Virus record (IMG/VR): IMGVR_UViG_2925908680_000005
Coordinates: 1-43,384 of that record
DNA length: 43,384 nucleotides
Direction: 5' to 3' (one strand)
Source of the DNA: a virus
Lineage: Duplodnaviria; Heunggongvirae; Uroviricota; Caudoviricetes
Position 1 is the stretch's first letter. Each line of letters begins with the position of its first letter. Under the pieces are notes generated by a model. It was given only the letters and a program-made list of their open reading frames with translations, was not told the origin of the DNA and searched no databases. Both the position numbers and the translations under genes were made by a program. This document shows positions 11,326 through 11,915 of the stretch, piece by piece.

Positions 11326-11368
11326 TTGAAATTACCAAGTGGAGTGCTTATATTTACCTTTGCGGTAA
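11326..11368 (+). promoter_or_regulatory. antirepressor promoter (TTGAAA-17-TATATT) with overlapping perfect operator palindrome at 11354-11368
   Basis: -35 TTGAAA 11326-11331, 17-bp spacer, -10 TATATT 11349-11354, then TTACC TTTGC GGTAA. Confidence 0.55.
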
Positions 11369-11454
11369 ATTTACATCGCACTCCTCTTGTGCCATAGTAA
11401 TCGGGCACTGGCAAAATCCAGTGCCGGGATTGGCGTCCCGGGTTACTACAGAGG

Positions 11455-11487
11455 CACATATGCCGCATAAGCGGTTTTTTTATGTGT
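11455..11487 (+). terminator. intrinsic terminator/attenuator in the leader between the antirepressor promoter and the antirepressor start
   Basis: hairpin CCGC-ATAA-GCGG inside an extended CACAT/ATGTG stem, followed by TTTTTTT; two further GC hairpins lie upstream. Confidence 0.45.
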
Positions 11488-11915
11488 AAAGCGCACCTAT
11501 TCTATGGTGGGCTGTGTGGGGGCACCGAAAGGTGCGCCGGGTCCTTTGTAGCCGGTTACGCCAACCCTGCACAGTTCACCACCAACCGATTGGCGTCGGT
11601 AGTGGTGATTAACCTAACTACAAAGGTGATCACTATGACTGCTAACGTAACCCCATCTGTTTTTCATTTTGAATCAGAAGCAACCATTCGAGCCATTGTT
11701 ATTGATGGAAATCCTTGGTTTGTTGCCAAAGACGTTATTAAAGCTCTTCAACTGACAAACCCCACTATGTCAATAAAATCTCTTGATGATGATGAAAGGG
11801 CTAAATTTAACTTAGGCCGTCAAGGCGAAACCAATATTATCAACGAGTCAGGCCTCTACACACTGATCCTCCGCTGCCGCGATGCAGTAACACCAGGCAC
11901 TATCTGGATTTGCCC

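Follow-up and report, generated by a model that had tools for sequence, protein, structure and literature searches.

What keeps the antirepressor of a phiV10-like phage silent is a question that the paper on phage ZX5 explicitly left open (PMC9782041), and it arises again for the prophage analysed here, a window of 43,384 nucleotides (IMG/VR record IMGVR_UViG_2925908680_000005) in which a long leader precedes the antirepressor gene ant. A first-pass annotation of the leader had proposed attenuation or small-RNA control of the kind seen in P22 sar and P1 c4. Our answer is that the region very probably constitutes the secondary-immunity ("immI-type") control of a phiV10/epsilon15-like (Uetakevirus) Escherichia coli prophage, in which a module of two RNAs, IsrK and C4, keeps Ant untranslated.

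RNA folding and a covariance-model search, both suggested by that annotation, identified a tandem of two curated Rfam families in the leader, RF01394 (isrK) and RF01695 (C4 antisense RNA). By this homology the leader is an IsrK small RNA followed by a C4 antisense RNA, a known phage immunity module found in P1 and in Salmonella Gifsy-1. Its RNA elements are:

11405-11481, plus strand: IsrK small RNA, also the c4-a1b1 element (RF01394, 74.7 bits against a cut-off of 50, model positions 1-77 of 77)
11405-11424, plus strand: IsrK hairpin 1 (RNA fold)
11425-11440, plus strand: IsrK hairpin 2 (RNA fold), with a1 in and around its loop
11430-11436, plus strand: a1, UUGGCGU, complement of a'
11446-11454, plus strand: b1, CUACAGAGG, single-stranded in the fold
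11462-11481, plus strand: intrinsic terminator, stem 11462-11466/11471-11475, loop AUAA, U7 at 11475-11481 (terminator scan and fold)
11500-11586, plus strand: C4 antisense RNA (RF01695, 79.5 bits against a cut-off of 45, model positions 1-87 of 87)
11543-11551, plus strand: b', CCUUUGUAG, loop of the second C4 hairpin
11558-11564, plus strand: a', ACGCCAA, C4 junction

The two GC hairpins and the hairpin with U7 terminator that had been described at first pass are therefore parts of IsrK, the terminator lying within the 11455-11487 then bracketed. The narrower model RF03163 (c4-a1b1) also matches at 11392-11444, with a borderline 44.1 bits that falls below its cut-off of 46.7. C4 is the most strongly structured part of the leader: its minimum free energy structure (-45.2 kcal/mol, z = -3.6) is that of the model, with a 17-bp closing stem, a GAAA-loop hairpin, a second hairpin carrying b' in its loop, and a' in the junction. 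In P1, RNase P cuts C4 out as a stable 77-nt RNA that represses translation in trans. Its 3' sequence ...CACCACCA, read directly from the sequences, is present in the window as in P1, and by P1 homology the mature C4 would be approximately 11506-11583. Three features had been missing from the first-pass annotation, namely the C4 element, a more widely conserved promoter at 11370-11398, and a 1331-bp IS2 that splits ant.

The same IsrK/C4 tandem, with the two RNAs 18-26 nt apart, lies 5' of antirepressor-like genes in phiV10, Tyrion, a Klebsiella phage, APSE-1, a Yersinia phage, VT2-Sakai, PhiR47_1 and Gifsy-1, and the C4 RNA of P1 is preceded by a c4-a1b1 element. When we aligned ten such loci, pairing reached 93% in the helices and 19 pairs had both partners changed, a result reached by 0 of 500 shuffles, while slid controls were 37-47% paired. 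The C4 closing stem was 100% paired across the ten loci, with 6 double-change pairs, and IsrK hairpins 1 and 2 were 98% and 96% paired, again with double changes. The MAFFT alignment loses register at the terminator, whose helix is only 60% paired in it, and across the variable segments b', b1 and b2; intermolecular pairs were scored without it.

Transcription of this module is predicted to begin at two tandem promoters separated by an operator, and the presumed repressor is encoded elsewhere in the window:

11326-11354, plus strand: upstream sigma-70-like promoter TTGAAA-17-TATATT (TTGAAA 11326-11331, TATATT 11349-11354), 10/12 consensus, predicted start about 11361
11353-11369, no strand: operator palindrome TTTACC-TTTGC-GGTAAA, perfect over 17 bp, core TTACC-N5-GGTAA at 11354-11368
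11370-11398, plus strand: conserved IsrK/C4 promoter TTTACA-17-CATAGT, extended -10 (spacer ends TGc), 9/12 consensus, predicted start G11405
38895-39479, plus strand: prophage repressor gene, 194 aa, helix-turn-helix (HTH_3), presumed binder of 11353-11369

The upstream promoter, which the first-pass annotation had recognized, is kept in phiV10, ZX5, HEMP4, phiv142-3, Tyrion and a Klebsiella phage, with hexamers TTGCAA/TTGTAA/TTGAAA and TATATT/TATTAT. Promoter-like matches in 10700-12000 number 4 against 2.4 +/- 1.8 in shuffles, which is not significant alone; a lone match was dropped as evidence and conservation across relatives was used instead. The downstream promoter lines up both with TTGACA-17-TATATT of Gifsy-1 isrK and with the P1 promoter annotated as P1c4 (P51b), its predicted start is the first base of the IsrK model, and it is equally distant from the RNA 5' end in 10 of the 10 loci compared. 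The leader, put at roughly 280 nt at first pass, measures 274 nt from the upstream start to the ATG at 11635, and only 230 nt from the conserved start at about 11405.

The operator palindrome spans the upstream start site, as had been claimed, centred at about +1 of that promoter and about -44 of the IsrK promoter. With 1 mismatch allowed, the window contains 13 sites for its core where 0.56 are expected, a count that none of 100 shuffles attained. Relatives conserve the half-sites and vary freely in the 5-bp spacer (TTTGC, GCAAA, TCACA, AAAAT), the pattern expected of a protein-binding operator. Because a further pair of operator copies, at 38777 and 38825, sits immediately upstream of the repressor gene, we infer that the 194-aa repressor binds 11353-11369. 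This protein is 99.5% identical to ZX5 ORF21 and to the phiV10 repressor, and overexpression of ORF21 blocks the ZX5 lytic cycle (PMC9782041). The upstream promoter, predicted to be active, is presumably repressor-controlled, with its -10 end overlapping the operator and its predicted start at the operator centre, and 11326-11354 is probably an auxiliary promoter under that control. Tandem promoters with an operator across the start of the upstream one form a P1-type architecture (cf. Oc4/P2c4/P1c4), for which binding is predicted here. More speculatively, this single operator could allow the repressor to shut off the long transcripts while permitting or stimulating IsrK/C4 transcription in the lysogen. 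As an idea only, the 5' extension of a long isoform (11390-11403) may form a helix with the b1 flank; it is partly kept in relatives and overlaps the conserved -10 region.

The terminator within IsrK is short, its stem comprising 5 bp with one G-U, and such a stem followed by U7 in the leader of a gene whose expression needs read-through could suggest a plain attenuator, in which a protein or leader-peptide translation governs read-through and no trans-acting RNA takes part. We consider this very improbable. No leader ORF is conserved: the ATG at 11482 has no Shine-Dalgarno sequence, is ATT in Gifsy-1 and VT2-Sakai, and opens a frame that is closed in phiV10, and the leader ORFs have no Pfam match. 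Moreover, a plain attenuator leaves the Rfam matches unexplained, as well as the three-way co-variation described below, which argues strongly against it. The terminator instead sets the 3' end of the small RNA and divides the transcripts into short and read-through forms; it is no classical attenuator. Of the two modes offered at first pass, small-RNA control stands, on C4/IsrK homology, and classical attenuation does not.

The candidate targets of C4 lie between its 3' end and the ant start codon:

11590-11596, plus strand: a2, UUGGCGU, exact complement of a' (inverted repeat 100%) and direct repeat of a1
11602-11608, plus strand: conserved GUGGUGA, complementary to UCACCAC (11576-11582), which is the 3' strand of the closing stem of C4; conserved column block GGTGGTGA
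11618-11626, plus strand: b2, CUACAAAGG, exact 9-nt complement of b', overlapping the Shine-Dalgarno sequence
11623-11629, plus strand: Shine-Dalgarno AAGGUGA of ant, ending 5 nt before the ATG

Direct repeats in the window thus pair a1 with an identical a2 and b1 with a similar b2, and the order a1-b1-terminator-C4-a2-b2-start codon is that of the annotated P1 sites. The C4 segments match both sets: b' pairs with b2 at 9/9 positions, all Watson-Crick, and with b1 at 9/9 including one G-U, while a' pairs with a1 and with a2 at 7/7 each. The GUGGUGA at 11602-11608 would also form the 5' arm of a hairpin (z = -4.4) that encloses the ant ribosome-binding site.

These complementarities co-vary. 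Among the ten loci the b' loop segments come in 9 distinct forms and the a' cores in 4 (5 for the a' segments as extracted), each with matching targets, and further matched a/b variants occur in HEMP4 and phiv142-3; b' is CCUUUUAG in phiV10 and CCACUUAG in HEMP4. In a permutation test across the ten loci, counting Watson-Crick pairs only in positionally homologous target windows, cognate complementarity was equalled in 0 of 20000 permutations for b1, 0 of 20000 for b2, and 25 of 20000 for each of a1 and a2. Allowing G-U pairs in unrestricted windows gave noisy cross-matrices. Whole-RNA RNAduplex predictions, which ignore intramolecular structure, yielded meaninglessly long duplexes, and gapless complementarity of the unpaired elements was used instead.

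Substitutions in the aligned loci also bear on whether the leader is coding. ZX5 has a CDS annotation over C4 ("ash family protein"), Gifsy-1 has orf45, whose translation matters for anrP expression (PMC4825925), and in the window an ORF from ATG 11482 runs in frame into ant, so that the leader might encode a small protein or an N-terminal extension of Ant. However, these frames are not conserved: the ORF from ATG 11504 over C4 has only 15 codons in the window and stops at 11549-11551, which is 84 nt short of the ant ATG, and phiV10 has other stops. Neither the window ORF from ATG 11482 nor the ZX5 "ash family" CDS gave a Pfam match, and the substitutions track base-pairing rather than codons. 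The Gifsy-1 authors' own comparison, as given in a review (PMC12197685), likewise found orf45 conserved in nucleotides and variable in amino acids. A coding leader is accordingly a reading to which we give very little weight.

Onto what was computed in this analysis (family membership, structures, complementarities and their co-variation, operator statistics and the IS2 disruption) a mechanism can be built in which C4 processing, translational repression, the direction of the IsrK effect, repressor binding and Ant activity are modelled on homologues, and the transcription starts, termination efficiency, C4 processing and RNA-RNA pairing in the window prophage are as predicted from its sequence. 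Transcription would start at the conserved promoter (about 11405) and at the upstream promoter (about 11361), the latter being shut off by the prophage repressor through the operator. Most transcripts would end at the weak terminator to give IsrK of about 77 nt (about 121 nt from the upstream start), and a minority would continue into C4 and ant. C4 would then be excised from the read-through RNA, as RNase P does in P1 to yield the 77-nt RNA, and its a' and b' would pair with their targets on the ant mRNA, a2 and b2. As the Shine-Dalgarno sequence is covered by b2, ribosome loading would be blocked and no Ant made. Since IsrK carries the target copies a1 and b1, it would compete for C4 or remodel the read-through RNA. 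Ant, once made, would inactivate the repressor and lead to lytic growth. If repression is indeed translational, changing b' from CCUUUGUAG to CCUAUGUAG, or changing b2, would derepress ant, and a compensatory pair would restore repression.

The c4 RNA of P1 and P7 blocks ant translation at the ribosome-binding site, which underlies P1/P7 heteroimmunity (reviewed in PMC12197685). In Gifsy-1, an excess of short IsrK turns translation on, and IsrK supplied in trans raised anrP translation more than 100-fold (PMC4825925). Hfq binding and trans-activation of the read-through mRNA by IsrK are described for Gifsy-1 only (PMC4825925). The compensatory Gifsy-1 mutations G28A/C162U and G31A/C159U (PMC4825925) map to a1:a' pairs in a numbering that we made, which also reproduces the published A107 and 119-121 AUGs and the G114-C175 stem pair. 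For a Gifsy-1 lysogen, IsrK and STnc1160 are listed with the RNAs whose transcription was high under every condition (PMC7067206). Judged by its position, STnc1160 is the counterpart of C4: it is a stable RNA just 3' of IsrK, where Rfam places C4. Mutations of a1 in cis raised basal translation in Gifsy-1 rather than lowering it (PMC4825925), so a picture of IsrK as only a C4 decoy is incomplete.

The same pairings could also act on transcription, in the manner of the satellite phage P4, with C4 binding a1/b1 (and a2/b2) on the nascent transcript and causing premature termination at the IsrK terminator or downstream. Hershko-Shalev et al. raised this possibility by analogy with the P4 CI RNA and its seqA/seqC (PMC4825925), and IsrK in trans raised a transcriptional fusion 8-fold in Gifsy-1 (PMC4825925). 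In the window b1 ends 7 nt 5' of the terminator stem, so pairing there could affect terminator folding. For P1, Biere, Citron and Schuster (1992) are said to have found that c4 repression of icd translation also leads to polar termination upstream of ant. Against this, the placement of b2, exactly on the Shine-Dalgarno sequence in the window and homologous in each of the ten loci, favours translational occlusion. In Gifsy-1 the translational effect was 139-fold against the 8-fold transcriptional one, and the constitutive STnc1160 gave no sign of acting as a termination factor (PMC4825925). We therefore judge P4-type termination unlikely as the explanation, although it and translational occlusion are compatible. 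The P4 CI RNA remains a parallel, as a processed, C4-like stable RNA from its own operon leader with target copies on both sides (PMC4825925); P4 differs in that replication genes are prematurely terminated where here an antirepressor ribosome-binding site would be occluded, a comparison made from the published description of P4.

Among the known systems nearest to that of the window are those of P1 and Gifsy-1. With the immI region of P1 and P7 (c4 - icd - ant1/ant2) it shares a homologous C4, which scores 79.5 bits in the window and 68.8 bits in P1, and the first-pass likeness to c4 is borne out by homology: the leader contains IsrK and then a full-length C4, the loops of C4 are complementary to the ant ribosome-binding site, and a BRO-N gene lies downstream. 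P1 likewise has a1, b1, a hairpin with T-run, C4 with b' and a', a2 and then b2 on a ribosome-binding site, tandem promoters of which the upstream one is overlapped by a primary-repressor operator (P2c4/Oc4, P1c4), and an antirepressor as output; as in the window group, the specificity loops vary between the related phages P1 and P7. The differences are that in P1 icd separates C4 from ant and bears b2 on its ribosome-binding site, whereas the window has no icd, only 48 nt from C4 to the ant ATG, and b2 on ant's own Shine-Dalgarno sequence; that P1 has a' CUGUCAA and b' UCACUAAC; that its C1 site is an asymmetric 17 bp, whereas the window has a symmetric TTACC-N5-GGTAA for a helix-turn-helix repressor; that its antirepressor is not a BRO-N protein like the window Ant; and that its upstream element reaches threshold only for c4-a1b1, where the window attains the full IsrK score. 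P1 is moreover a plasmid myovirus, and the window phage an integrated podovirus.

The Gifsy-1 isrK-orf45(STnc1160)-anrP region carries the same tandem 5' of an antirepressor-like gene (IsrK 79.3 bits, C4 69.0 bits), with a1/a'/a2 identical to those of the window (UUGGCGU/ACGCCAA), the IsrK promoter equally far from the RNA 5' end, b2 abutting the antirepressor Shine-Dalgarno sequence, and a leaky terminator giving short and read-through isoforms. Its b' is CGGUGAU where that of the window is CCUUUGUAG, and the window has an extra upstream promoter with a repressor operator. Activation in Gifsy-1 runs through a 45-codon ORF that overlaps C4 and is coupled to anrP, whereas the 15-codon window equivalent from ATG 11504 ends 84 nt before ant, and the toxicity of the Gifsy-1 antiterminator AntQ has no evident counterpart in the window.

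The likeness to P22 sar proposed at first pass did not hold. P22 immI (mnt, arc, ant, sar) similarly imposes a secondary immunity over an antirepressor, in which a small RNA blocking translation of ant plays a part (PMC12197685), and a temperate podovirus with a long leader before its antirepressor gene invites a general analogy in which a small RNA from the opposite strand spans the ant ribosome-binding site and represses translation. However, sar is a cis-antisense RNA, whereas the regulators here are on the same strand as their target; P22 uses Arc and Mnt repressors and shows no sequence or structural homology to the window. Scanning 10700-12000 found no minus-strand promoter-like site, and minus-strand terminator-like sites only at 11281-11328, upstream of the leader; no arc/mnt-like small ORFs were found in the leader. 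As same-strand IsrK and C4 account for the whole region, we find a sar-type arrangement extremely unlikely.

In the window genome the target gene itself is broken:

11635-11904, plus strand: 5' part of ant, codons 1-90, BRO-N domain (ORF and domain match)
11905-13235, minus strand: IS2, 1331 bp (ends read directly; HTH_Tnp_1 and rve transposase ORFs; annotated as IS2 in matching genomes)
13241-13657, plus strand: 3' part of ant, continuing past IS2

IS2 splits ant 270 bp after the ATG, flanked by a 5-bp target duplication, CTATC, at 11900-11904 and 13236-13240, and the genomic copy encodes 90 native residues followed by 28 IS2-derived ones. Rejoined (11635-11904 + 13241-13657), ant encodes 228 aa with a Bro-N match at E = 5e-20; E. 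coli SCEC020022 has an intact 228-aa gene of the same length and domain annotation behind a leader 99.3% identical. In the close relative ZX5 the anti-repressor ORF4 occupies the same position behind the same leader, and its overexpression promotes the lytic cycle (PMC9782041). By analogy, the window Ant would antagonise the repressor. IS2 lies outside the regulatory module and inactivates its cis target, so that the module has nothing functional left to control in cis here. IsrK and C4 are undamaged, and could still regulate in trans an incoming phage whose specificity matches.

Of 5426 complete E. coli genomes, 77 carry a near-complete copy of the leader and 956 give partial IsrK/C4 matches. 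In the phiV10-like phages and the E. coli genome record that we inspected, both RNAs are unannotated or mis-annotated as CDS. The window holds an ordinary copy of a well-known module and has little significance beyond annotation; nevertheless, recognizing IsrK and C4 explains how the antirepressor is silenced in the phiV10-like genus, while in the window genome IS2 has put the antirepressor arm of induction out of action. The primary repressor is 99.5-100% identical in amino acids across phiV10, ZX5, HEMP4, phiv142-3 and the window prophage, and these same E. coli Uetakeviruses carry at least 3 b' and at least 2 a' specificities of C4, each with matching a1/b1/a2/b2. We tentatively suggest, with rather less than even confidence, that one repressor combined with differing C4 specificities predicts P1/P7-style heteroimmunity in a podovirus genus, and that the IS2 knock-out of ant represents a domestication that keeps RNA-based immunity. 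If so, a resident C4 would fail to silence the incoming Ant of a phage of another C4 type, which would escape immunity and induce the resident.

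As judged from sequence, the leader preceding the antirepressor gene ant encodes members of two curated RNA families, the small RNA IsrK and the antisense RNA C4, in an arrangement that corresponds to the known immI-type design. An Rfam scan at curated thresholds recovered both, and a relaxed threshold added a match to the family of C4 targets. The first-pass annotation had described two GC hairpins and a terminator here; the hairpins (11405-11424 and 11425-11440) and the terminator (11462-11481; a 5-bp stem with one G-U pair, loop AUAA and seven U's) are present, and by family match they are IsrK. 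C4, whose fold is the leader's most stable (-45.2 kcal/mol, z = -3.6), had been missed.

Features of the leader and associated elements (window coordinates)
7381, 7553, 10974, 11354, 30207, 33005, 33023, 36360, 36422, 38777, 38825, 39537, 39599: operator motif copies (motif scan)
8542-10869, minus strand: tail-fibre gene, bordering the leader region, with the BRO-N antirepressor gene on the other side
11370-11398, plus strand: IsrK/C4 promoter, predicted (TTTACA 11370-11375; 17-nt spacer ending in extended -10 TGc; CATAGT 11393-11398)
11392-11444: 'a1, b1 targets of C4' (RF03163), relaxed threshold, 44.1 bits, below the cut-off of 46.7
11405-11481, plus strand: IsrK (RF01394), full-length match, 74.7 bits, cut-off 50
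11430-11436: a1, UUGGCGU, in hairpin 2 of IsrK
11446-11454: b1, CUACAGAGG, single-stranded in IsrK; nine pairs with b', one G-U
11500-11586, plus strand: C4 antisense RNA (RF01695), full-length match, 79.5 bits, cut-off 45
11543-11551: b', CCUUUGUAG, loop of the second hairpin of C4
11558-11564: a', ACGCCAA, C4 junction
11590-11596: a2, UUGGCGU, downstream of C4; 7/7 complement of a'
11618-11626: b2, CUACAAAGG, downstream of C4; 9/9 complement of b'
11905-13235, minus strand: complete IS2, 1331 bp, with 5-bp target duplication CTATC at 11900-11904 and 13236-13240

By sequence similarity, the window is a phiV10/epsilon15-like prophage (genus Uetakevirus) of E. coli. Positions 10870-11920 are 93-98% identical to phiV10, ZX5, O157 typing phages 9 and 10 and others, and 77% identical to Enterobacter phage Tyrion, while prophages in many E. 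coli chromosomes match its first 25 kb. The prophage also carries a tRNA-Arg gene (anticodon UCU; 30544-30620, plus strand) and a 295-aa ORF (37256-38143, minus strand) whose translation reads the peptide MLNDPKNG five times in tandem.

Eight other phages (phiV10, Tyrion, Klebsiella phage ST11-OXA245phi3.2, APSE-1, Yersinia phage vB_YpM_41, VT2-Sakai, PhiR47_1 and Salmonella Gifsy-1) likewise have IsrK and C4 in tandem, 18-26 nt apart, upstream of antirepressor-like genes, and phage P1 carries c4-a1b1 followed by C4. When these ten leaders, including that of the window, were aligned, six local helices were 93% paired (37-47% in slid-partner controls) and 19 pairs were doubly changed, a number that none of 500 shuffles equalled.

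The recognition elements of C4, a' and b', have targets both inside IsrK (a1, b1) and before ant (a2, b2). A repeat finder run with no prior knowledge returned a1=a2 and b1~b2 as direct repeats, and a':a2 and b':b2 as inverted repeats at 100%. Element b2 overlaps the Shine-Dalgarno sequence AAGGUGA (11623-11629), which ends 5 nt from the ATG at 11635. The P1 GenBank annotation gives the identical order, a1-b1-terminator-C4-a2-b2-start codon; in P1, a1/a2 are TTGACAG, b1/b2 are GTTAGTGC/GTTAGTGA and c4 lies at 48343-48419. The leader had earlier been likened to both P1 c4 and P22 sar; the Rfam C4 match and the shared a/b order bear out the former, and the analysis gave no support for a sar-like RNA from the opposite strand. 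The 3' strand of the C4 closing stem has a complement in a conserved GGUGGUGA (11602-11608 region), which also forms a hairpin (z = -4.4) that encloses the ribosome-binding site and carries b2 in the loop; in these models, the pairings suggest recognition between loops and alternative folding of the RNA before processing.

Across the ten loci, the b' loop segment takes nine different sequences and the a' core four (five a' segments as extracted), and at every locus the cognate b1/b2 and a1/a2 change in step with them. Thus b' CCUUUUAG is found with two copies of CUAAAAGG in phiV10, and CCUUGUUAG with two of CUAACAAGG in APSE-1, where GUCUCAA likewise accompanies two copies of UUGAGAC; in Tyrion, AGACCAA accompanies UUGGUCU twice. 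The close relatives HEMP4 and phiv142-3 add a further matched type, CCACUUAG with CUAAGUGG twice. We scored runs of Watson-Crick pairs within target windows at homologous positions, against 20000 permuted C4-target assignments: the cognate sums for b1 and b2 lay above all permutations (0/20000 each), and the values observed for a1 and a2 were reached in 25/20000 each. Co-variation and permutation test together provide strong comparative evidence that the C4-target pairings are functional. Were the leader a plain attenuator, the co-varying target sites would be left unexplained.

The upstream promoter noted previously, TTGAAA-17-TATATT, is found at 11326-11354 (10/12 consensus matches), and the palindrome TTTACC-TTTGC-GGTAAA (11353-11369) is indeed centred on its predicted start. 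Promoter-like matches alone are not unusual in number (4 found, versus 2.4 +/- 1.8 in shuffles). The operator core TTACC-N5-GGTAA, counted over the whole window with one mismatch allowed, occurs 13 times versus 0.56 expected, and 0/100 shuffles reached 13. Several copies are paired, 48-62 bp apart, in intergenic positions of the early/immunity region, one pair just upstream of the repressor gene. Among relatives, the half-sites are conserved and the 5-bp spacer is free (TTTGC, GCAAA, TCACA, AAAAT), the typical pattern of a protein-binding operator, and together the thirteen copies seem to mark out the prophage's repressor regulon. The likely operator-binding protein, on sequence similarity, is a 194-aa HTH protein (38895-39479) that is 99.5% identical to the phiV10 and ZX5 repressors; overexpression of the latter, ORF21, abolished free phage (PMC9782041).

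A sigma-70-like promoter ends 6 nt upstream of the first base of IsrK in 10/10 loci, and because this spacing is constant we assign 11370-11398 as the conserved IsrK/C4 promoter, with a predicted start at G11405. Its equivalents are TTGACA-17-TATATT in Gifsy-1 and TTGACC-17-TATAGT in P1, the latter being the annotated P1c4/P51b promoter. The promoter at 11326-11354 is an additional one, shared by the Uetakevirus group and by a Klebsiella phage. Between these promoters is the operator, its centre near +1 of the upstream one and near -44 of the IsrK one, and its right half-site stops one base short of the IsrK promoter -35; P1 also has tandem promoters, with the C1 operator Oc4 at the upstream one. 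We infer that in the lysogen the repressor would close the upstream promoter, with IsrK and C4 still being supplied from the conserved one. Such a constant supply agrees with the high transcription of IsrK and STnc1160 under all conditions in Gifsy-1 lysogens (PMC7067206); STnc1160, a stable RNA just 3' of IsrK at Rfam's C4 site, is by position the C4 homologue.

An outer inverted repeat surrounds the operator (11336-11347, CAAGTGGAGTGC; 11378-11389, GCACTCCTCTTG; 92% complementary). In phiV10 this repeat and the operator form one perfect palindrome with 18-bp arms, and the Klebsiella phage has other outer arms that remain complementary (ATGGGTT/AACCCAT). The repeat may represent a longer protein-binding site, or may fold as a hairpin when transcripts enter from the upstream gene. 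In TL-2011b, ~0.9 kb of unrelated DNA (~755-1620 of locus L012) takes the place of the stretch from the gp24-like gene to the operator; the usual upstream promoter is lost, and the operator, IsrK promoter, IsrK and C4 are kept. A ~121-nt IsrK isoform is predicted from the upstream promoter, and in its fold (MFE -49.3 kcal/mol, z = -4.4) the 5' extension (11390-11403, UGUGCCAUAGUAAUC) pairs with the b1 flank (11440-11456, GGUUACUACAGAGGCACA). This pairing, mostly kept in phiV10 and Tyrion and mismatched in the Klebsiella phage, masks b1, so in this folding model the long and short isoforms might differ in activity.

The ORF from 11635 encodes a BRO-N protein and is interrupted after codon 90 by IS2, giving a predicted product of 90 native and 28 IS2-derived residues. 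Removal of IS2 restores a 228-aa protein (Bro-N E = 5e-20) with the length and domain annotation of the intact gene in E. coli SCEC020022, whose leader is 99.3% identical. An IS2 also lies under the alignment in two matching E. coli chromosomes. Overexpressing ORF4 of ZX5, the anti-repressor found at the equivalent position after the same leader, reduced the number of lysogens ~1000-fold (PMC9782041). As IS2 splits ant, the cis target of the module is inactive in this genome, with IsrK and C4 intact.

Just upstream of the leader lies an 85-aa ORF (11065-11322, plus strand), a homologue of phiV10 gp24 and epsilon15 gp19 with no Pfam family. It shares 41% identity with the last 78 residues of the antirepressor (E = 3e-16), and a perfect TTACC-N5-GGTAA (10974-10988) stands ~90 bp upstream of its start codon. 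By this similarity, it could provide the C-terminal domain of Ant as a separate protein that modulates Ant or the repressor.

By analogy, the best-supported model combines P1 and Gifsy-1. C4, freed from read-through transcripts, would pair with a2/b2 and block ribosome loading on ant, and a1/b1 of IsrK would bind the same C4 elements and modulate this block. In Gifsy-1, short IsrK supplied in trans raised anrP translation >100-fold, and two compensatory pairs, G28A/C162U and G31A/C159U, were confirmed (PMC4825925). Numbered from the Rfam IsrK start, these are a1:a' base pairs, and the same numbering reproduces the published A107 and 119-121 AUGs and pairs G114 with C175 in the closing stem of C4. 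Unlike P1, the window has no icd gene, and b2 lies on ant's own Shine-Dalgarno sequence; unlike in Gifsy-1, the counterpart of orf45 has 15 codons and stops 84 nt short of ant, which leaves no scope for translational coupling of the Gifsy type. In addition to this combined model, C4 may act on termination in the manner of P4.

Both RNAs are unannotated in the phiV10 record, where only a 'terminator' is marked, and in the RefSeq/PGAP record inspected (E. coli SCEC020022, L010 901-1506). In the ZX5 record, a CDS named 'ash family protein' is placed across the C4 RNA (L011 950-1063); this CDS has no Pfam match, and the analysis does not support a leader peptide or an 'Ash' protein.

What appears modestly new, on sequence comparison, is that E. 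coli Uetakeviruses with a common repressor differ in C4 specificity. Phages whose repressor is 99.5-100% identical to that of the window (HEMP4, phiv142-3, phiV10 and ZX5) have, together with the window, three b' loops and two a' elements, all with matching targets. This resembles P1 and P7, whose heteroimmunity has been attributed to differing c4 RNAs (PMC12197685, a review), and the combination of one repressor with several C4 specificities predicts RNA-determined heteroimmunity within the genus Uetakevirus.
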